A stretch of DNA of 64,000 nucleotides from Escherichia coli. GTDB taxonomy: Bacteria; Pseudomonadota; Gammaproteobacteria; Enterobacterales; Enterobacteriaceae. The stretch is taken from assembly GCF_030384885.1 (NCBI RefSeq), contig NZ_CP128615.1. One strand, given 5' to 3'. Shown here in pieces: positions 11,664 through 57,624 of the stretch. The notes under the pieces were generated by a model. That model saw only the letters and a list, made by a program, of their open reading frames with translations, ran no database searches and was not told the origin of the DNA. Every line of letters starts with the position of its first letter. Within the stretch, counting starts at the first letter, position 1. The position numbers and the translations under genes are program-made.

Positions 11664-12479
11664 CTAAGCGAGGTTCTTGTTTTCAAATTGTTCCGGACTG
11701 AGGCCGCCACACCAACTGTGCCGCCGCCACCGATTGTAATCACATTCGATATAATTAAACACCGTTGCCCGCATTATTTCCCGGCTGATAAAGTGTTCTC
11801 CATGGATACATTCCACTTTCAGCGAATGAAAGAAGCTTTCCACGCAGGCATTATCGTAGCAGCAACCTTTTGCGCTCATACTTCCACGCAGATTATGCCG
11901 CTTCAGTTGCGCCTGATAATCTGCTGAACAGTACTGGCCTCCACGGTCCGTGTGAACGATAACGTTCCAGGGCCTCTTACGCCGCCATAGCGCCATCTGC
12001 AGGGCATCGCAGGCCAGTTGCGCCGTCATGCGTGGCGACATTGACCAGCCAATAACGGCACGTGACCACAGGTCAATGACCACTGCCAGATACAGCCAGC
12101 CTTCATCTGTACGTAAGTACGTGATGTCTCCTGCCCACTTCTGGTTCGGGCCACTGGCGTAAAAATCCTGCTCCAACAGATTTTCTGACACAGGCAGGCC
12201 GTGTGCGCGGTAGCTGACCGGGCTGAACTTCCGGGAGGCCTTTGCCCTCAGTCCCTGACAGCGCAGGCTTGCCGCCACGGTTTTTACGTTAAAGGGGTAA
12301 CCCTGAGCACGCAGTTCATCCGTCAGGCGTGGGGCACCGTAACGCTGTTTTGACCGGGTAAAAGCCGCGAGGACAACGCTGTCGCAGTGTTGGCGGAACT
12401 GCTGACGCGTGCTTATCCTTGTCCGCCGCTGACACCACGTATACCAGCCGCTGCGGGCCACCCGGAGCACGCGGCACAT
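11664..12479 (-). CDS. insF: IS3 OrfB (InsF-type DDE transposase catalytic subunit)
   Basis: 271-aa ORF with DDE integrase core (WAGDITY...HTDRGGQY...). Confidence 0.9.
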
Positions 12480-12526
12480 TGCTTTGATGCTGAACTCAGC
12501 CTGATGTTTTTCAATAAAGACTTACT

Positions 12527-12835
12527 TCATTTCAGGCGCTTCGCGAAGTATGTCGCGGCCTTTTGGAGGATAGCCAGCTCTTCATCCCGTTCTGCCAGCT
12601 GGCGTTTGAGACGTGCAATCTCGGTAGACATCTCCAGTTCACGTTCAGAAGACGTCTGCTGATTTTGCTGTTTACTGCGCCAGTTGTAGAGCTGTGATTC
12701 ATACAGGCTGAGTTCACGGGCTGCGGCAGTAACACCGATGCGTTCAGCAAGCTTCAGGGCTTCACTGCGAAATTCAGGCGAATGCTGTTTACGGGGTTTT
12801 TTACTGGTTGATACTGTTTTTGTCATGTGAGTCAC
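12527..12835 (-). CDS. insE: IS3 OrfA (InsE-type transposase DNA-binding subunit)
   Basis: 102-aa ORF, HTH and leucine-zipper region typical of IS3 OrfA. Confidence 0.9.
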   Translation of the reverse strand: MTHMTKTVSTSKKPRKQHSPEFRSEALKLAERIGVTAAARELSLYESQLYNWRSKQQNQQTSSERELEMSTEIARLKRQLAERDEELAILQKAATYFAKRLK

Positions 12836-13735
12836 CTCTGACTGAGAGTTTACTCACTTAGCCGCGTGTCCACTATTGCTGGGTAAGATCACTCTGGCGC
12901 AACGTCTGGCTGATTGCCCGGCTTCGTAATTCAATTCTTTGTACATAAACAGGACGCTTCACCTGCGCGCAATAAACGGTACGGTGAACACCGAATAAAT
13001 AACAAAGAATCCGCACTGGCCGCTTTGCCTTCAGCCGTGTGCTTAGTCCGACAAGTTTTGAGCATGCATTGAGAAAAACTCCGTTCCGTATGCCTTCATG
13101 AGTCTAATCCATTGAAATCAGCGATAGCTGTGATGAACTGTTTAGTGCTAAAACAGCACTACAATTTAACCTATACAACAATTAGGCGTACAATTTATTT
13201 TATGTTAAATTCAGTTTTATGTATCTGATTGCTTAATGTTCAAGTATTTAGATATTAGATAACACAGAATAACTCTTGTTTGGTATTTATTTTTTAGACG
13301 CTAGTCATTTAAAAAATGATAACTATAAGAATAATCACAAATTTAAACAACAATAAAAGTTATAGTTTTCAATGTCTTAATAAACCATGTTAACAATTTA
13401 TGCTTTATTCAATTCATTACATTTTCTTTAAGAATTTTCACGTTTAAAATAAAAAAATCATCACGGACAGGAGGTGTTTAGTTTATAGCTCAAAGAATTA
13501 ACATGATGATAACATCAGCGCAACCATTCTTTCTCCTTTTTGTTTTGATTTAACATAAAGGATTTTAGAATTTTAAAATCAAATAATGCTAAATAATAAA
13601 ATTGGAAAATAACACTTATTTTTCATCATAAAAATACCCATAAAATGGGGGGGGGGCAGCATTCATTATAATAAACAATATAAACTCCGACTTTGTGCTT
13701 GCCCTCAAAAAGAGGGCTTCTTTTAAGAAGATGAT

Positions 13736-48553: not shown

Positions 48554-51500
48554 TTACTTAATTCTTACTCGGTCGCCAGCTTTGACCGCAGCAATCAGCT
48601 GCTCTCTTAAAGCGGCAAGATAGGCATCAACTTCGGCTTCACTTTCAATGAATCCGGTTGTTACTGACTTAGCCATGGCATCGGTTGAGTTAATCGTTAC
48701 GGTACGTTTTGCAACCGGCTGTGGCTGCACTGGTTCAGAGGCTGGCTCAGGTGCTGGAGCTGCTTTACCGGCTTTCGCTGCTTCCTCTTCGCGTGTCTGC
48801 TGTTCGAGTTCACGACGTCTTTGCTCAGCTTCAGCTTTTTTGCGTTGATCTTCGATAAAGCCATTCAGCAACTCATAGGCTTCGTCCTCGTAACCTTCCG
48901 CTTCAGTTTGCTCACTGATAATTTGTGGTATTGAAGAGGTCGCTTCAATACGCTGTCTGCACATTTGTAACGGGCGCAGTGCTTGGTTCTGTAATTCAGA
49001 CGGTGCATGAGCTTCAGCTAGCGCTTCTTTTACACGTCCGATGCGCAGATCAACACGCTCTAAGGCATGAGTGCGTTTTTCTTCAACCAATGTTGAGTTA
49101 ATTTTTGCCACCTGCTCGATAAGCGGATTAATGTGGCGCAGCTGCTCATACGGCGAGGGCATATTGTAAATGCGTTCTAATTCAGTGAGCGCTTTTAATG
49201 CTTCACTGTCTTTTTCTAACGCAGGTCTATTGGCCTTAAACTTCTCGTTCAATGCGCCAGCAAGGGCTTGCCAAGTTTGAAATTGGCTATTGTAGAAGTC
49301 ATCAAGATCCTCAAAGTCCTCAGCAAACTCTTCAAGGGCATCAGCGTTTTCTAAGAATCGGGTGATAAGAGCGAAGCTTGAAGTTTGCTCAAGAATACCC
49401 GCGACCAATGCAAGACCATCGTCAATTTGAGATTTACCTGGGAAATGGCCTGTCTGTGACTTGGTTCTGAATGATTTAAGCTCTTCATTCCAAGCCAGTA
49501 ATTCATCGCGCACTAATTCGTAGAGCTCCTTTTCACCAGAGCCGGTAAAGGTTTTTGAAAAGATCTCTTTAACAAGACCAGCAGCCTTTTTGATTTGGCG
49601 CTCGTCATGTTGCCTGATTTTATGTACACGGATCTCACCGCGTTTACGCACGCTGGTAAACGGCTCGTAAGCTTTTTTCAACGCCAGATCTGTGCCCTGG
49701 GTACTAAAAGATAACTTTCCAGCCAAGCCCAGCCTTGCAGTGAGCAATAAGATTTCATTGTCTGGCCAGCCATACGGGCGCTTGCCGAAGTGGGCAACGA
49801 TGTCACGTAAGTAAACAGGCTCATTACGCTCGACTTTTAGCGTTACGTACTGCTCAACCTCACGCGTAGCTTCTGGGTTACATTCATCCGCTTGAAGATC
49901 CAGTCCAATCTGAGCAATATCATCAGCAACAAGTACGGCCTGTAGCTCACGCAAAACTTCACCAGGCGTCGCCTTGAGCATGTTCAATTTAGCGAAGGTG
50001 TTTTCGATAACGTATTTGTATGCTTCTTCGACGATGGCACTTGGCGTTGCTGATTTCTTCGGTAGTTTTGTGCCGATAGCGTAAACGTCAGCCTCTGCAA
50101 ACAAAGCTTCAAAATCCGTTCTTAAGCGTTTTTCACGCTCAATATTTTCCATCTGCTTTTCGCGGAGAAGGTGTTCTTGCTCTGGTCGCTGTCCTGAATT
50201 TTGTTTTAAGAATCGGTCAGTTTTTATAAAGGTTGTCAGGTCATCCCAAAGACGTTTATGTTCGCCCAGCTTGACGAGCACGCACCCATCAGCCTCAAGC
50301 GTATGATTGATGCAGGCTTGATCGTGGGAGTAATTTTCAAAGTGCGAATCCAAAGGTGAAATGACTTTAATGACTAGATCTTCCAGCGTGGTGCCATCTT
50401 TTGGATGACCATTGCAAAAACGGCTCACCGCAAAGTCTTGCTTATTAATCGGGTATCGATAGGCACGATTACCTTTCAAAATACCGTCAAATACGATTGC
50501 TGAAAGCTTGTTAGAGACCTCTGACATTTCAACGTCAGTGTGGCGGATCTCGTTTTCAATCTCTTTTTCTTCGTTGGTCAGGAAGATAAATTCATCACCA
50601 TTACGCGCAATCAGCAATTGGCGTTCAAGACGATTCAAGCTCTCTTCAATTTGTTTACGCAGCGCAATTTTATCTGCATCGATTCGATCAATTGACAGCG
50701 TCACAAGGTTGTCTAGTGTGCTTTTGACAACGTCCACATAACGGATCAAGAAAAGAGTTTTTAGAATCTTGCCATCGAATTCTGTTAAGGAATCCAACTC
50801 ACAGGCTTGGTCAATCGTTCGCTTAACCGCTGGCTCCAAAAAGCTTTCAATCGGTGCATAGAAACTGTAAAACGGGATTAACACATCAAGGCCAGAGTCC
50901 TTCATCTGTTTTGCAGCTGATTGGAAAGCATCAAGTAATGAACGCTCACCCATGGCTAAGTGCTTACCCGTCGCGCCTTTTGTTCGAATTGACTCAAACA
51001 CTTTTTGAACCAGCGTGTAGTGGTAAGGCACAAACGGATAGTTGTCCACGAAAGACGGAGCGTCGGTGTAGCCCTTTAGAGACGCAGTTGTCGTTTTATC
51101 AAATGTCAGCTGGTTACGAAGAATGTCGCCCTTTTCAGCAAACACATCGATGAGGTGTGTACGAGCTTCTTCCGTTTTGGACAACAAACGCTTTTGAATA
51201 ACTTCCGAGGTATTCGAGCTCGACAGCTGCAAGCGGGTACTAAAACGCCCTTGAATTTTAGAGAAGTCCTCGCCATCGCGCTTATCCATACCACCAATGG
51301 CAGCATCAATGTCTGCCTGAGAGGTAACAACGACCCAAGCTCTGCCACCACAATATGTGCCAAGATCTTCAGTAATGGTCTGAAGCTTCAACATCATTTG
51401 TGTGTTCTTACCGATAAACTGACCGACTTCATCGACTAAGAAAAGAAGGTTACGATCTCCAGTTCGATCTAAGTATTCATTAACCCACTTACAGAAGTTT

Positions 51501-52231
51501 CGGATATCTAGCGGGAAATTGTTTTCAACCTGTTCAACCCACGCTTTGGCAGACTCTAATGATTGCTCACTGGCATGAGCGAGTGCTTCTGAAAGTTCGT
51601 CTCGATAGAAGTCATAGGCGTCACGCTCCTTTTCCCAAGTTGATTGAGTCAACTCAGCAAATTTGTCCTTGAAAGACATGTATTGATTACGCTTATCAAG
51701 CTCGCGTTCTAAATGCGCAATGTGAGGAAAATCAGCGCAGTATCCTACACGCTCATTAAAGACTTTGAGGAAGACCTTAAGAATGGCATTTTCTCGGTCA
51801 TCCGTATTGGCTCGTGAATCGATGTTAAAAAGAATAACATCAGTGTCTTTGGTAACAGCGTTTTGGATATCGGCCAACAGCATGGCATCGTTGATTTTGT
51901 CTTTAAAAAACTCAAATGCTTGACGGCCTTGGCCATCCTTTTCGACAGACTTATTTTCGAGGAGGTAAGACAAAATTTTCAGGAAGTGAGACTTACCCGA
52001 ACCAAAGAAGCCAGAGATCCACACACCAATTTTTCCTGACATTGATGCGCCACTTTGCGTCACAGATGGAACGTAAGCCTCAAAGAAAGCGCGAAAATGT
52101 CGATCTAGCTCTCGGGTTACAACATACTCATCAAGTTCGACATACACACTGTCATTGTCTTTCTGTTCCGCTTTAACAACGCCGTTAATATCACGCGTCA
52201 ACTTCTTGGAAAAAATCTGTTCAATTTTCAT
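48554..52231 (-). CDS. brxC: BrxC (large BREX P-loop ATPase)
   Basis: 1225-aa ORF with Walker A GFFGSGKSHFLK. Confidence 0.85.
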   Translation of the reverse strand: MKIEQIFSKKLTRDINGVVKAEQKDNDSVYVELDEYVVTRELDRHFRAFFEAYVPSVTQSGASMSGKIGVWISGFFGSGKSHFLKILSYLLENKSVEKDGQGRQAFEFFKDKINDAMLLADIQNAVTKDTDVILFNIDSRANTDDRENAILKVFLKVFNERVGYCADFPHIAHLERELDKRNQYMSFKDKFAELTQSTWEKERDAYDFYRDELSEALAHASEQSLESAKAWVEQVENNFPLDIRNFCKWVNEYLDRTGDRNLLFLVDEVGQFIGKNTQMMLKLQTITEDLGTYCGGRAWVVVTSQADIDAAIGGMDKRDGEDFSKIQGRFSTRLQLSSSNTSEVIQKRLLSKTEEARTHLIDVFAEKGDILRNQLTFDKTTTASLKGYTDAPSFVDNYPFVPYHYTLVQKVFESIRTKGATGKHLAMGERSLLDAFQSAAKQMKDSGLDVLIPFYSFYAPIESFLEPAVKRTIDQACELDSLTEFDGKILKTLFLIRYVDVVKSTLDNLVTLSIDRIDADKIALRKQIEESLNRLERQLLIARNGDEFIFLTNEEKEIENEIRHTDVEMSEVSNKLSAIVFDGILKGNRAYRYPINKQDFAVSRFCNGHPKDGTTLEDLVIKVISPLDSHFENYSHDQACINHTLEADGCVLVKLGEHKRLWDDLTTFIKTDRFLKQNSGQRPEQEHLLREKQMENIEREKRLRTDFEALFAEADVYAIGTKLPKKSATPSAIVEEAYKYVIENTFAKLNMLKATPGEVLRELQAVLVADDIAQIGLDLQADECNPEATREVEQYVTLKVERNEPVYLRDIVAHFGKRPYGWPDNEILLLTARLGLAGKLSFSTQGTDLALKKAYEPFTSVRKRGEIRVHKIRQHDERQIKKAAGLVKEIFSKTFTGSGEKELYELVRDELLAWNEELKSFRTKSQTGHFPGKSQIDDGLALVAGILEQTSSFALITRFLENADALEEFAEDFEDLDDFYNSQFQTWQALAGALNEKFKANRPALEKDSEALKALTELERIYNMPSPYEQLRHINPLIEQVAKINSTLVEEKRTHALERVDLRIGRVKEALAEAHAPSELQNQALRPLQMCRQRIEATSSIPQIISEQTEAEGYEDEAYELLNGFIEDQRKKAEAEQRRRELEQQTREEEAAKAGKAAPAPEPASEPVQPQPVAKRTVTINSTDAMAKSVTTGFIESEAEVDAYLAALREQLIAAVKAGDRVRIK

Positions 52232-52249
52232 TCGGGAGGCTCCCTGCTC

Positions 52250-52843
52250 TTAATTTTTTTTACCGTCTTCAGGCACAAGCTTGAAGGCGCGATAGTAGTT
52301 TTTAGATTCGATCATGCCGAAAGGATGCAAATCCCTTCCGCTATATTCACCCGGATAGAAAAGCACTAATGGCGTGCTACCCATAACGTCTTGCAGAGCA
52401 CTAAGTAACTCATGTCCTCGGATAAGAGGCCACGCACTGCCTAAGCCTGACAGCAACACAAACTCAAGTTCTGATGGCTTATATTTGTCCGCGATATACC
52501 TTGCCACTTTCTCTTGGCTCAGAGGCCCGGCTAGTGTTTTTCGAAGGCCATCAACACCGACTTGCAATTCACGCTGGCAAGCTCGGTCGAAAAGGCCTCG
52601 CTCCTCAAGCATATCTATCAAGACTTCAAAAATATTGAGATGGACAAAGCGGTAACCACGCTTGTTGAGTTTTTCGTCAACGTGCTTAATGTGCTCTCGT
52701 ACAAGCAGTTCATACTTGGCTGGATAGTCAAATACCCAAAATCCAATTTCATTGCCCAAGCCATCGTTTTTCAAAAACTTAGGGCTTTCAATTCGTTCCA
52801 GTATCAGATCAAGCCTGGTCTGAAGAGCCTTCATATTGTGCAC
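52250..52843 (-). CDS. brxB: BrxB (DUF1788)
   Basis: 197-aa ORF between brxA and brxC; assignment by size and synteny. Confidence 0.7.
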   Translation of the reverse strand: MHNMKALQTRLDLILERIESPKFLKNDGLGNEIGFWVFDYPAKYELLVREHIKHVDEKLNKRGYRFVHLNIFEVLIDMLEERGLFDRACQRELQVGVDGLRKTLAGPLSQEKVARYIADKYKPSELEFVLLSGLGSAWPLIRGHELLSALQDVMGSTPLVLFYPGEYSGRDLHPFGMIESKNYYRAFKLVPEDGKKN

Positions 52844-53430
52844 TCCATTACCTCAATCAAATCTTCCCGGCCCAGACGAACTAACCAGTCTTTAACTTCT
52901 GGCATTAGGTAAACAGGTTGTATTTTCTTTGTCCTGCTATCACTCAGGTAGCCACTATCAACCAGTGCCTTAATTGCGTTGTTACCCATTTTTTTGACAG
53001 TTGAGTCAGAAAAACCGCCAAGCTCAGCATATGCCCGCACTCTCGTGTCATAAAACTCAGACCATGCATCAGCGGTTAAAGAGGGTTTATAGGTGCGACG
53101 AGCTTCGGCTAAGGTAAGTCGCATAAAATAAGCGACAACCGGAGAATGAATGAGTAATGACATCATCAGCATTTGGACATAGGCACGTTCACTCGCGGCT
53201 AAAAGATCAGTCATAAACTCATCACCCAGGCCTTCAATACGCCAACGGATTGTTCTGGCATAACGAATAGCCGTCTGACCGGATTTTTTCTGAAGAACAT
53301 TTTGCTCAACGATCAGCGACTTCCACTCATCTTCTGGAAGTTTTTTCAATAGCGATTCTGCGATTATTCTAGATTCAGTTATCAATAAACTGCCTCCGAT
53401 AAGATCGCCTAAATATTCTTTTATATTCAT
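52831..53430 (-). CDS. brxA: BrxA (DUF1819)
   Basis: 199-aa ORF, first structural BREX gene; 13-bp overlap with brxB. Confidence 0.7.
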   Translation of the reverse strand: MNIKEYLGDLIGGSLLITESRIIAESLLKKLPEDEWKSLIVEQNVLQKKSGQTAIRYARTIRWRIEGLGDEFMTDLLAASERAYVQMLMMSLLIHSPVVAYFMRLTLAEARRTYKPSLTADAWSEFYDTRVRAYAELGGFSDSTVKKMGNNAIKALVDSGYLSDSRTKKIQPVYLMPEVKDWLVRLGREDLIEVMECTI

Positions 53431-53439
53431 AAATTCATC

Positions 53440-54366
53440 TCACGATTCGCTATATCCAGGAGCGAGTGCAGCATTGTCAACGCCGTATAGTGCTTCTGGA
53501 TTTTTAAGTGCTAAATGGAACTCTCGCCCATTGCTCTTACAATTCTTTGAACAATCGATATTCCATAAACGCAGTAAATATCCAGCGAACGCAGCTCTTA
53601 TCTCTACACGCAACCTATTGTTTTCCATTGCGTAGTCCATCGATACAGCTTCTGGATGTGCTAGTTTTGGATGAGGTATCAGCTCTAGCTCAACGATTCG
53701 GTTCCATTGCTTATCCCACTGAAGAGTCTCAACTTCGTCGTTAACCTCATCCTCTAACAACTCAACTTCACTTATTCTGGTTAAAACAAAATCCCTAAAT
53801 TCTCTAAGCTTTCTATCGAATGCTCGGACATGCCATCTCAAGCCATTGTCAATCAGGGTATGAGGAACTATTTGCCTGCTCCCATGACCACTCGACAATG
53901 AGGTGTACTCAATATTAATCACAGCGCGCTTATGTATGGCTTCACTAATAGCCGCTACAACTTCCAATTTCGGCTTATTGAGATGGAATGGTGCTTCACA
54001 AGCCATAGGTGGCCTGGCCTTGCCAAGAAAGCCATCACCGAACCCTTGGCTTATCGTCGCAAGAGTTCGAACAACGTCATAATCAAACAACGGCTGGAAT
54101 GCGCTCGTCTTCAAGTGCACTCTGCGCTTTTCGTCATACATAACGTTGTTAGGAGCCAACTCTTTGTACCGCGCAAAATCTTGTGTTGCCACAGACGGCG
54201 CTACGCTAAATCGCTCGGTTAAATAACTACGCCCAGCTTCACCTTTAAATAACAAAGTGAAATCAATATGAGCGAGTCGTTCTCTCTGTGCTTGGCTAAG
54301 CTCTTCAAGTCCAGTGTTGTCTTGCACTGTCAGCCTCTCAATCCATCTGGGACAAGCCCTAATCAT
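53440..54366 (-). CDS. brxR: BrxR-like regulator (wHTH-WYL type)
   Basis: 308-aa ORF immediately upstream of brxA, same strand; assignment by position and size. Confidence 0.6.
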   Translation of the reverse strand: MIRACPRWIERLTVQDNTGLEELSQAQRERLAHIDFTLLFKGEAGRSYLTERFSVAPSVATQDFARYKELAPNNVMYDEKRRVHLKTSAFQPLFDYDVVRTLATISQGFGDGFLGKARPPMACEAPFHLNKPKLEVVAAISEAIHKRAVINIEYTSLSSGHGSRQIVPHTLIDNGLRWHVRAFDRKLREFRDFVLTRISEVELLEDEVNDEVETLQWDKQWNRIVELELIPHPKLAHPEAVSMDYAMENNRLRVEIRAAFAGYLLRLWNIDCSKNCKSNGREFHLALKNPEALYGVDNAALAPGYSES

Positions 54367-54685
54367 TTAAAACTAGGAAGCCATCGATTGAATGCCATCA
54401 AGCAACCTACTTTTTTTCATTAGGTATCATAGTATCAACAAGTCGTCTTGTTGGCTATAAAAATTGGCTTGACGTTGTTCGAATGTTTCTTTTCTGGCCT
54501 TGATAGAAGCTCACGCTGGAATGCCAACTGACGCAATTCATTCTCTCGAACACGCCTAGCAACTTCTGCCTGGGCTGGTAGCTGATCTTGACCCTCCATC
54601 TCCGAACAGCTTTTGTATCTTAAGTTAACGATGTCCGCTGCCGCCGGTATTCCCTCGGGGAGTGATATCCCAGCGCGCTGTGCGG

Positions 54686-54961
54686 GTGGCTTCCATTTCC
54701 ATCAGATGTCCTTCCTGCTCCGCTACTGAAGGCGTGGTGCGTAACGGCAAAAGCACTGCCGGACATCAGCGCTATCTCTGCTCTCACTGCCGTAAAACAT
54801 GGCAACTACAGTTCACTTACACCGCCTCTCAGCCCGGTACGCACCAGAAAATCATTGATATGGCCATGAATGGCGTTGGATGCCGGGCAACCGCCCGCAT
54901 TATGGGCGTTGGCCTCAACACGATTTTACGTCACTTAAAAAACTCAGACCGCAGTCGGTAA
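54686..54961 (+). CDS. insA: IS1 InsA (GTG start)
   Basis: [43 protein letters not shown]... Confidence 0.8.
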
Positions 54962-55383
54962 CCTCACGCATACAACCGGGCAGTGACGTCATTGTTTGCG
55001 CGGAAATGGACGAACAGTGGGGTTATGTCGGCGCTAAATCACGCCAGCGCTGGTTGTTTTACGCGTATGACAGGATACGGAGGACGGTTGTGGCGCACGT
55101 ATTCGGTGAACGCACGTTGTCCACGCTGGAGCGTCTTCTGGGCCTGCTGTCGGCCTTTGAGGTCGTGGTATGGATGACGGATGGCTGGCCGCTTTATGAA
55201 TCACGCCTGAAGGGAGAACTGCACGTTATCAGCAAGCGATATAAGCAGCGCATTGAGCGGCATAACCTGAATCTGAGGCAGCATCTGTCAAGGCTGGGCA
55301 GGAAGTCACTGTCGTTCTCAAAATCGGTGGCGCTGCATGACAAAGTCATCGGGCATTATCTGAACATAAAACACTATCAGTAA
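54880..55383 (+). CDS. insB: IS1 InsB (expressed as InsAB' by frameshift)
   Basis: Overlaps insA in the -1 frame; 167-aa ORF. Confidence 0.8.
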
Positions 55384-55590
55384 GTTGGAGTCATTACCTT
55401 CTTTGCCGCCGGACATTGTCCGGCGCAACACCAAACCGGTCTGGCGGGCTGAGCCAATCCCGCAGGCAAATTCAGCCCTTACCGGATGGCTCAGCCCCCT
55501 ACTCATTGGAATTGGATATTCAACTTTCAGGGGCTACTGCGCCAGACTTCAGTCTTTAAAGTGATTGACTTAGCGCCTGGCACACTCAAT

Positions 55591-55902
55591 TTATTTAGGT
55601 AGCGGGCCTAATTGCACCCCATCAGGATAATACTTCCAGCCATCGCGAATTTTGACATTTTCATCCCACGGAAGTTTGTATTCGCCATTGGCAAGATCGC
55701 GCACCCAGGTCAGGTAATTCTCGCGTTCGCCTCCCGGTTTGCCGACATAGCCCCGGCAGCCAAGGTTGAAAATATTGTTTTCCAACGCCCAGTTTTCACG
55801 CGCTTTATCCACCAGGCGCGGGAACAGCTCTGCGGTAACAATTTCCCATGGGTTGCGGTGCCCCTGCTGAATGACGTTACCGTCATAATTGCAGACCGTA
55901 CC
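55591..55902 (-). pseudogene. C-terminal remnant of an unknown gene truncated by IS903
   Basis: ORF runs into the IS903 left inverted repeat at 55903 with no start. Confidence 0.4.
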
Positions 55903-56959
55903 GGCTTTGTTGAATAAATCGAACTTTTGCTGAGTTGAAGGATCAGATCACGCATCCTCCCGACAACACAGACCATTCCGTGGCAAAGCAAAAGTTCAGA
56001 ATCACCAACTGGTCCACCTACAACAAAGCTCTCATCAACCGTGGCTCCCTCACTTTCTGGCTGGATGATGGGGCGATTCAGGCCTGGTATGAGTCGGCAA
56101 CGCCTTCATCACGGGGAAGGCCCCAGCGCTATTCTGACCTTGCCATCACGACTGTGCTGGTCATTAAACGCGTATTCAGGCTGACCCTGCGCGCTGCGCA
56201 GGGCTTTATTGATTCCATTTTTACACTGATGAATGTTCCGTTGCGCTGCCCGGATTACAGCTGTGTCAGCAGGCGGGCAAAGTCGGTTAACGTCAGTTTC
56301 AAAACGTTCACCCGGGGTGAAATCGCGCATCTGGTGATTGATTCCACCGGGCTGAAGGTCTTTGGTGAAGGCGAGTGGAAAGTCAAAAAGCATGGCCAGG
56401 AACGCCGTCGTATATGGCGAAAGTTGCATCTGGCAGTTGACAGCAACACACATGAAATCATCTGTGCAGACCTGTCGCTGAACAATGTGACGGACTCAGA
56501 AGCCTTCCCGGGTCTTATCCGGCAGACTCACAGAAAAATCAGGGCAGCATCGGCAGACGGCGCTTACGACACCCGGCTCTGTCACGATGAACTGCGGCGT
56601 AAGAAAATCAGCGCGCTTATCCCTCCCCGAAAAGGTGCGGGTTACTGGCCCGGTGAATATGCAGACCGTAACCGTGCAGTGGCTAATCAGCGAATGACCG
56701 GGAGTAATGCGCGGTGGAAATGGACAACAGATTACAACCGTCGCTCGATAGCGGAAACGGCGATGTACCGGGTAAAACAGCTGTTCGGGGGTTCACTGAC
56801 GCTGCGTGACTACGATGGTCAGGTTGCGGAGGCTATGGCCCTGGTACGAGCGCTGAACAAAATGACGAAAGCAGGTATGCCTGAAAGCGTGCGTATTGCC
56901 TGAAAACACAACCCGCTACGGGGGAGACTTACCCGAAATCTGATTTATTCAACAAAGCC
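55903..56959 (+). mobile_element. IS903-group insertion sequence (1057 bp), no target duplication
   Basis: 18-bp terminal repeats GGCTTTGTTGAATAAATC at 55903 and inverted at 56942-56959; flanks GACCGTACC versus AGATGGAAT. Confidence 0.85.
55935..56903 (+). CDS. IS903-group (IS5-family) DDE transposase
   Basis: Sequence recognised as IS903/IS102-type transposase; canonical start may be further downstream. Confidence 0.85.
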
Positions 56960-57041: not shown

Positions 57042-57624
57042 TGACCTGCTCCCCGTTGATTAGTACACCCCGATGTTAGTAATGTCTTCATAAGCCACAT
57101 GAGGACATCCCCATGAAGAAGCGTTTTTCCGACGAACAGATCATCAGTATTCTCCGCGAAGCCGAAGCTGGGGTACCCGCCCGTGAACTCTGCCGCAAGC
57201 ATGCCATTTCCGATGCCACGTTTTACACCTGGCGTAAGAAGTATGGCGGTATGGAGGTGCCTGAAGTTAAGCGCCTGAAGTCGCTTGAGGAAGAGAACGC
57301 CAGACTCAAGAAGCTGCTTGCCGAAGCCATGCTGGATAAAGAGGCGCTTCAGGTGGCTCTTGGGCGAAAGTACTGACGACAGACCAGAAGCGGGAAGCCG
57401 TGATGCTGATGTGTGATGCGACCGGTCTGTCGCAACGTCGTGCCTGCAGGCTTACAGGTTTGTCCCTGTCGACCTGCCGCTATGAGGCTCACCGTCCGGC
57501 TGCTGATGCGCATTTATCAGGGCGCATCACTGAGCTGGCACTGGAGCGCAGGCGTTTTGGCTACCGTCGTATTTGGCAATTGCTGCGCCGTGAAGGGCTT
57601 CATGTTAATCATAAGCGCGTGTAG
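57042..57624 (+). mobile_element. Truncated IS3-family (IS407-group-like) element: intact orfA, orfB cut off
   Basis: Left end begins TGACCTGC; orfA 57113-57376; orfB fragment 57400-57624 ends abruptly. Confidence 0.6.
57113..57376 (+). CDS. IS3-family OrfA
   Basis: 87-aa HTH/leucine-zipper protein MKKRFSDEQIISILREAEAGVPARELCRKHAISDATFYTWRKKYGG. Confidence 0.7.
   Translation: MKKRFSDEQIISILREAEAGVPARELCRKHAISDATFYTWRKKYGGMEVPEVKRLKSLEEENARLKKLLAEAMLDKEALQVALGRKY

Follow-up and report, generated by a model that had tools for sequence, protein, structure and literature searches.

A mosaic insertion-sequence scar upstream of brxR in an Escherichia coli BREX/BrxU island

Results

Organization of the region upstream of brxR

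The stretch of Escherichia coli DNA analysed here (64 kb in length, hereafter the window) carries a BREX/BrxU island on its minus strand, in the order brxR-brxA-brxB-brxC-brxU-pglX-pglZ-brxL, with a 587-aa DUF262 protein at the brxU position. Pfam searches and gene order place a gene for a WYL regulator, brxR, immediately upstream of brxA; its start is the ATG at 54366 in RefSeq, while the start used in the pEFER paper is 39 nt downstream, corresponding to 54327. The same BrxR accession, WP_006788197.1, is found in IS-bearing plasmids identical to the window and in PCN061p6, which is IS-free. One further plasmid, pPK8568-156kb, is identical to the window over positions 36300-56959, and has every BREX gene as well as brxU annotated as intact.

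A preliminary description of this locus had placed an IS1 element directly upstream of brxR. It does lie upstream, but the two are not adjacent: 319 bp intervene, of which 216 bp are native DNA from upstream of the BREX genes and 103 bp come from the terminus of an element resembling IS2. This IS2-like terminus, the IS1 remnant and the 3′ end of amiF together form a module of 1,320 bp (54583-55902), followed on the right by IS903. The coordinates of all features are collected in Table 1.

Table 1. Features of the brxR upstream region and of the adjoining insertion-sequence mosaic (window coordinates).
Feature	Coordinates	Strand	Basis or remarks
brxR, 308-aa WYL regulator of the BREX/BrxU island	53440-54366	-	ORF; Pfam WYL 2.3e-12; WP_006788197.1
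Native PbrxR region	54402-54457	-	pEFER alignment
R-BOX1 IR2 AAGTAGGTTGC, preceded by spacer AAAAA	54412-54402 (IR2)	-	
R-BOX1 IR1 GATACCTAATG	54428-54418	-	
Extended -10 TGATACTAT	54437-54429 (hexamer 54434-54429)	-	our own reading
-35-like TAGCCA	54457-54452	-	17 nt upstream of the extended -10; our own reading
3′ remnant of 105-aa gene, 49 codons and stop	54435-54582	-	comparison with IS-free loci
IRR-terminal 103 bp of an IS2-group, IS3-family element	54583-54685	-	TG tip at 54583
IS1 remnant without positions 1-55	54686-55398	+	713 bp, IS1 positions 56-768 kept
insA	54686-54961	+	ORF list
insB′ frame	54880-55383	+	ORF list
IS1 A6C frameshift site TTAAAAAAC	54935-54943	+	joins the InsA and InsB′ frames (-1 frameshift)
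IS1 right inverted repeat (23 bp), intact	55376-55398		GGTAATGACTCCAACTTACTGAT on the minus strand
amiF (formamidase) 3′ fragment	55399-55902	-	co-inherited with the IS1 remnant; Klebsiella-type amiF-urtEDCB context
IS903, 1057 bp (ORF 55935-56903)	55903-56959	+	right limit of the Klebsiella-derived segment; annotation and match boundaries

The IS1 remnant

Alignment with three complete E. coli IS1 copies placed the breakpoint at 54686: this is the first IS1-homologous base, the insA GTG start and position 56 of IS1. From there on the remnant is 96-99% identical to the complete copies, and all four sequences have identical right ends up to 55398, in agreement with the earlier statement that the right end is intact at that position. 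In the complete copies, the 55 bp ahead of the insA GTG include GGTAATGGTGCCAACTTACTGAT...; this sequence is absent from the window, and the alignment finds nothing convincing in common between those 55 bp and the window. A degenerate search of the whole 64 kb for the IS1-type inverted repeat, allowing up to 3 mismatches (0 matches expected by chance), returned a single copy, at 55376-55398, and of the terminal repeats only the right one is present. The loss of the left end also leaves no pair of flanks between which an 8-9 bp target-site duplication could be compared. The left repeat had thus been correctly reported as missing upstream of insA (54620-54685), and the element as truncated or recombined: its first 55 bp are gone, and foreign IS DNA is joined on in their place.

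Transposition of IS1 requires both inverted repeats, and the promoter of IS1 is located within its first 55 bp. Since the remnant has a single inverted repeat, it cannot transpose and is immobile; its InsA and InsAB′ frames are intact, although they lack a promoter of their own. The insB′ frame alone passes the NCBIfam IS1 transposase model (142 against a cut-off of 100), while the insA frame scores 91, just under the IS1 cut-off of 100, and also matches a model of the IS1/IS1595 zinc-binding domain. In the identical plasmids, PGAP treats this gene as intact and calls it “IS1 family transposase, programmed frameshift”. The frames are oriented away from brxR, and a consensus promoter and terminator scan of both strands of 54250-54800 found no replacement promoter for insA. 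An inward-facing TTGACC (54588-54593) was considered as a possible driver of insA and rejected, as it is not followed by an acceptable -10. A GTG at 54662 lengthens the insA frame by 8 codons into the IS2-like DNA (54662-54685), the PGAP start being the canonical GTG at 54686.

The IS2-like terminus and its join to IS1

The DNA to the left of the IS1 remnant could be traced to the IRR end of a full-length element on the K. pneumoniae plasmid pKPN3, to which positions 54583-54689 are identical at 107 of 107 nt. Read on the minus strand, positions 54620-54685 give the 22 C-terminal codons of OrfB, whose translation resembles the end of IS3-family transposases, and in a BLAST search of PLSDB the segment 54583-54690 matched 2,341 plasmids, many of them at 107/107 under an annotated IS3-family transposase. 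The parent element (located at approximately 94.8-96.1 kb in NC_009649) is about 1,332 bp long and encodes an OrfA of 131 aa and an OrfB of 293 aa. Its OrfB passes the NCBIfam IS3 model (194 against a cut-off of 160), and its best match is IS2 TnpB, at a score of 415, which is below the cut-off of that model (597). Compared with IS2A of MG1655, the element is 69% identical in nucleotide sequence, 75% in OrfA and 63% in OrfB, with termini of the same style. On these comparisons we assign the parent to the IS2 group of the IS3 family, as opposed to IS2 proper.

The outer end of the terminus coincides with the end of the element: three different left flanks (truncated brxT, an IS66 fragment and an IS2 fragment) all stop at the TG tip base 54583, with one ambiguous C. 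The inner end does not have this character. At the join, 54685|54686, IS1 and its IS2-like partner both read GTGG, which extends the identity with the parent to 54689, and the bases around this overlap, GTGGcTTcCATT in IS1 and GTGGtTTtCATT in the IS2-like element, form an imperfect homology. Because the join falls inside a short imperfect homology, and at neither element’s end, we infer that it was formed by a microhomology-mediated (illegitimate) deletion rather than by transposition. A deletion of this kind would have taken IS1 bases 1-55, the greater part of the IS2-like element and whatever lay between the two.

The plasmid pKPN3 itself offers a second, different IS2-like/IS1 junction. At one end of its IS2-like element, an IS2 left-end fragment (L010, 2403-2501; 96 of 97 nt as in MG1655 IS2A) meets the IRR tip with a 1-bp spacer, and the other end of the element adjoins IS1 at approximately internal position 268 (L010, 3834-4335).

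Recurrence of the module in BREX-free contexts

The fused segment is by no means confined to BREX islands. In E. coli RefSeq genomes, positions 54582-55500 recur without brxR, and in both p1-LC-1302-2020-KPC3 and the NCTC11129 chromosome the segment has clpK-hsp20 and IS66-type fragments to its left and amiF-urtEDCB to its right. Alignment of the BREX-free copies shows that identity with the window starts exactly at ...C|TGATCTTGACC, and local BLAST shows that the block held in common with these records reaches 55902, where IS903 starts; two sequences with the Klebsiella-type context (L001 and L002) match window positions 54582-55902 at 99.3% and 98.8%. The E. coli genomes searched numbered 5,426, and the PLSDB plasmids 72,556. 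Among the latter, a 100-nt probe spanning the IS2-like/IS1 join (at least 80% coverage) matched 971 plasmids, mostly from Klebsiella, and a probe that included the Klebsiella-type left flank matched 960. With no BREX nearby, the same IS2-like/IS1 fusion is carried by one E. coli chromosome and by about 960 plasmids of the Klebsiella type. Since the fusion is shared with so many BREX-free Klebsiella-type plasmids, the truncation of IS1 is older than, and unrelated to, the BREX junction, and the IS2-like/IS1/amiF block is, on the evidence of the alignments, a common inherited module older than that junction. A search for a precursor on the Klebsiella side gave matches dominated by IS1.

An IncHI2A plasmid of K. 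pneumoniae (L015, 5102-6161) carries an IS903-like element, 92% identical, with the same left boundary, 55902/3, as the IS903 of the window. This common boundary suggests either recombination between IS903 isoforms or independent use of one site.

The BREX junction and the upstream small gene

In a four-way alignment, the BREX DNA meets the IS2-like end at 54582|54583, exactly at the TG tip, with one ambiguous C. When positions 53900-54690 were searched in E. coli genomes, 6 plasmids matched the full stretch, while 45 records matched 53900-54582 only. In IS-free BREX loci, namely pEFER-like plasmids, PCN061p6 and several chromosomes, the sequence is continuous with the window from inside brxR to 54582, at 96.8-99.6% identity. 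These loci have a hypothetical 105-aa gene (WP_032156934.1) on the strand of brxR and 68 bp upstream of it; its full-length form occupies 12496-12813 in pEFER, and is also present in locus L004 (3536-3853). The gene is kept directly upstream of brxR in plasmid as well as chromosomal loci, with a variable set of genes beyond it. Of the three genes upstream of brxA that are named in the pEFER papers, the 105-aa gene is, by its position, most likely brxT. At the junction, the window has lost the first 56 of its 105 codons and everything beyond, including brxS; as far as sequence comparison goes, the loss is limited to brxS and the 5′ half of the brxT-like gene. A 54-aa ORF (54435-54599) has its in-frame ATG supplied by the IS end.

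A piece of DNA related to brxS is nevertheless found elsewhere in the window. Positions 57042-57623 hold the first 582 bp of an IS3-family element, with orfA at 57113-57376 and an end at 57623, and this piece corresponds to the “IS3 transposase” upstream of brxT in PCN061p6 (96.9% identity) and in pEFER, i.e., to the authors’ brxS; with respect to BREX, the piece in the window is inverted. A single inversion linking the window to pEFER was considered and rejected, as no one inversion gives the observed order, which leaves multiple IS-mediated events.

The junction between the truncated brxT-like gene and the IS2-like end was detected in 9 PLSDB plasmids and in 6 E. coli RefSeq plasmids, the two sets partly overlapping. 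Among the PLSDB carriers are p1658/97, an IncR plasmid of Raoultella ornithinolytica, a plasmid of K. michiganensis and an IncHI2A plasmid of K. pneumoniae. Annotation was inspected for five of the nine, these four and AR_0011, and three more, all from E. coli, also match the whole composite. The same composite is present in every annotated BREX-junction record inspected, with the IS1 gene at a constant offset from brxR. The BREX-junction records have common DNA from BREX to at least 55573, and diverge rightward via IS5, IS903 and IS3 events. This pattern points to a single ancestral junction that subsequently travelled with a functional-looking island, its carriers now being IncF, IncR, IncHI2A and other plasmids in E. 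coli, Klebsiella and Raoultella.

The brxR promoter and operator

In pEFER, the region upstream of brxR has strong BrxR-repressible promoter activity, and the operator R-BOX1, an inverted repeat of 11-5-11 layout, lies at 12,820-12,846 with a predicted -10 just upstream (PMC9122601). The EMSA probe used in that study (pEFER 12,801-12,870) covers both R-BOX1 and the predicted -10, and its supplement lists the reporter fragments R7 (12,400-12,941) and R8 (12,682-12,941). A gap-free BLAST match allows direct conversion of coordinates (window = 67248 - pEFER), which places R-BOX1 at 54402-54428, the -10 at 54429-54434, the probe at 54378-54447, and R8 at 54307-54566. The mapped -10, R-BOX1, the probe and the whole of R8 all fall inside retained native DNA, the nearest element being approximately 125 bp from the junction, and a promoter followed by an 11-5-11 R-BOX1 is represented upstream of brxR by the homologous sequence 54402-54434. 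Judging from these alignments, the brxR promoter and its operator R-BOX1 are untouched by the IS junction. Fragment R7, on the other hand, spans 266 bp that are missing from the window, and DNA upstream of pEFER 12,666 may have contributed to the measured R7 activity.

R-BOX1 reads GAAACCTACTG-AAAAA-CAGTAGGTTGC in pEFER and GATACCTAATG-AAAAA-AAGTAGGTTGC in the window, with 24 of the 27 bases identical; IR2 agrees at 10/11 positions, and IR1 differs at two bases. Two of the three differences recur in PCN061p6 and cq9, both IS-free E. coli loci, while the third falls on a position, base 3 of IR1, where the loci compared have T, G or A. Since these differences are found, or vary, in IS-free loci, they represent lineage variation and not an effect of the IS. 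The internal symmetry of R-BOX1 is 7/11 in the window versus 10/11 in pEFER.

The consensus scan of 54250-54800 returned no promoter or terminator on either strand, PbrxR itself (8/12 hexamer matches) also being missed, and in particular gave no promoter reading outward from the IS2-like tip. The putative -35 and -10 enclose a perfect 7-bp hairpin, CAACAAG-ACGA-CTTGTTG (54436-54453), which overlaps the stop codon of the upstream gene and is invariant in four aligned loci; it could be a second operator or a structure at the end of the upstream transcript.

Discussion

Proposed origin of the scar

We interpret the feature as a three-part mosaic scar, rather than an insertion of IS1 into the brxR promoter, with the promoter and the BREX genes intact, and put the probability of this reading at about 0.85. 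As to how the mosaic was assembled, the likeliest first step would be the transposition of an entire IS2-like copy into the brxT-like gene, since the flank changes exactly at the IS tip. The body of this copy would then have been swapped by homologous recombination within the terminal 103 bp, as suggested by an internal break identical to that in the ~960 Klebsiella-type plasmids, and the right side may have been set by a second crossover, or by later IS903/IS5 events. This history of insertion followed by recombination is put forward tentatively, at somewhat less than even odds, against other routes mediated by IS ends. Neither the 5,426 E. coli genomes nor the 72,556 plasmids yielded an intermediate carrying a full-length IS2-like element in brxT.

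Could the junction affect BREX without touching the promoter? Loss of brxS, of the 5′ half of brxT, and of any upstream promoter or read-through into brxR might alter BREX indirectly. The conservation of the 105-aa gene upstream of brxR, on the same strand despite differing genes further upstream, speaks for such an effect, as does the presence of the lost 266 bp in the active fragment R7. A passing mention in PMC9122601 also has brxS and brxT as necessary for methylation. However, the pEFER authors treat brxS and brxT as accessory genes, PMC8565348 terms their role unclear and gives no deletion data, and no promoter activity was found upstream of brxS (PMC9122601). The brxT-like protein, moreover, matches no family in Pfam, NCBIfam or PADLOC. 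The truncated form has also been maintained in four species, on IncF, IncR, IncHI2A and other plasmids whose BREX genes are intact, and because of this persistence the island appears to tolerate the loss; we regard an indirect effect as unlikely.

Less probable still is the reading offered in the preliminary description, in which the event that joined IS DNA to BREX truncated IS1 and removed or replaced the native brxR promoter, thereby altering BREX regulation. The left end of IS1 is indeed missing on the side facing BREX, and the native sequence upstream of brxR breaks off after 216 bp; yet the truncation junction is identical in the ~960 BREX-free plasmids and the one E. coli chromosome, and thus predates the BREX junction, so that the two are not tied to each other. 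The -10, R-BOX1 and the whole of R8, in turn, lie within retained DNA that is 96.8-99.6% identical to, and up to 54582 continuous with, the IS-free loci, a comparison in which the promoter is intact and its supposed loss finds no support. The idea that the element is a complete and mobile IS1 isoform, divergent and unusual at its left end, an idea to which the intact insA and insB′ frames and frameshift site and the same left junction in many plasmids might lend some appeal, can be set aside as having a negligible chance of being correct: the left 103 bp are 100% identical to an IS2-like end, with an OrfB C-terminus on the other strand and without anything like an IS1 repeat, nearly all recurrences share one flank on each side, which implies inheritance and not transposition, and no genuine IS1 isoform with this left end was found.

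Implications

With the three-part mosaic as the preferred reading, the feature is an ordinary one, a routine mosaic IS scar that has already been sequenced. A suspected regulatory lesion is removed from consideration, the mapped brxR promoter and operator being intact, and the odd IS1 becomes an inherited scar, unable to move and frequent among Klebsiella plasmids. Since PbrxR, R-BOX1, brxR and all of the BREX and brxU genes are intact, BrxR autoregulation and BREX/BrxU expression would probably proceed as in pEFER-type islands. The junctions 54582|54583 and 54685|54686 can serve as lineage markers for tracing the BREX/BrxU island across plasmids and species, and the lineage provides a natural brxS/brxT-deficient comparator for the study of these uncharacterised accessory genes. 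It is improbable that this lineage, which naturally lacks brxS and the 5′ half of brxT and has spread with an otherwise intact island, constitutes a re-tuned or partly disabled BREX variant; if, nonetheless, the upstream genes or transcription through them do affect BREX methylation or control, it would offer a ready-made test of the roles of brxS and brxT.

Comparison with known systems

Each part of the mosaic has a recognizable counterpart. The IS2-like terminus has its TG tip and OrfB C-terminus in common with the element on pKPN3, but keeps only 103 of its ~1,332 bp. The IS1 remnant resembles its closest annotated isoforms, IS1X3/IS1X4 (~96%), in insA, the A6C site, the insB′ frame and the 23-bp right repeat, and differs from the complete element in lacking the first 55 bp, that is, the left inverted repeat and the region of its own promoter.

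For the mosaic as a whole, the closest relatives are E. coli p1658/97 (NC_004998) and its kin, which carry the identical succession of truncated brxT, IS2-like terminus, IS1 remnant, amiF fragment and IS903, at 99.8% over 48583-56959. To the right of IS903 these plasmids have IS100 and an arsenic-resistance region, whereas the window has the IS3 fragment. A literature search on p1658/97 returned only unrelated papers.

The island itself is best compared with that of pEFER (Picton et al. 2021 and 2022; PMC8565348, PMC9122601), which has the same gene order as the window. The two are 97.8% identical over the 2.3 kb compared (retained upstream DNA, brxR, brxA and brxB), with the -10 and R-BOX1 at the homologous position. 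In contrast to pEFER, the window is without brxS in its native place, its brxT-like gene is missing the first 56 codons, and R-BOX1 is changed at 3 of its 27 bases.
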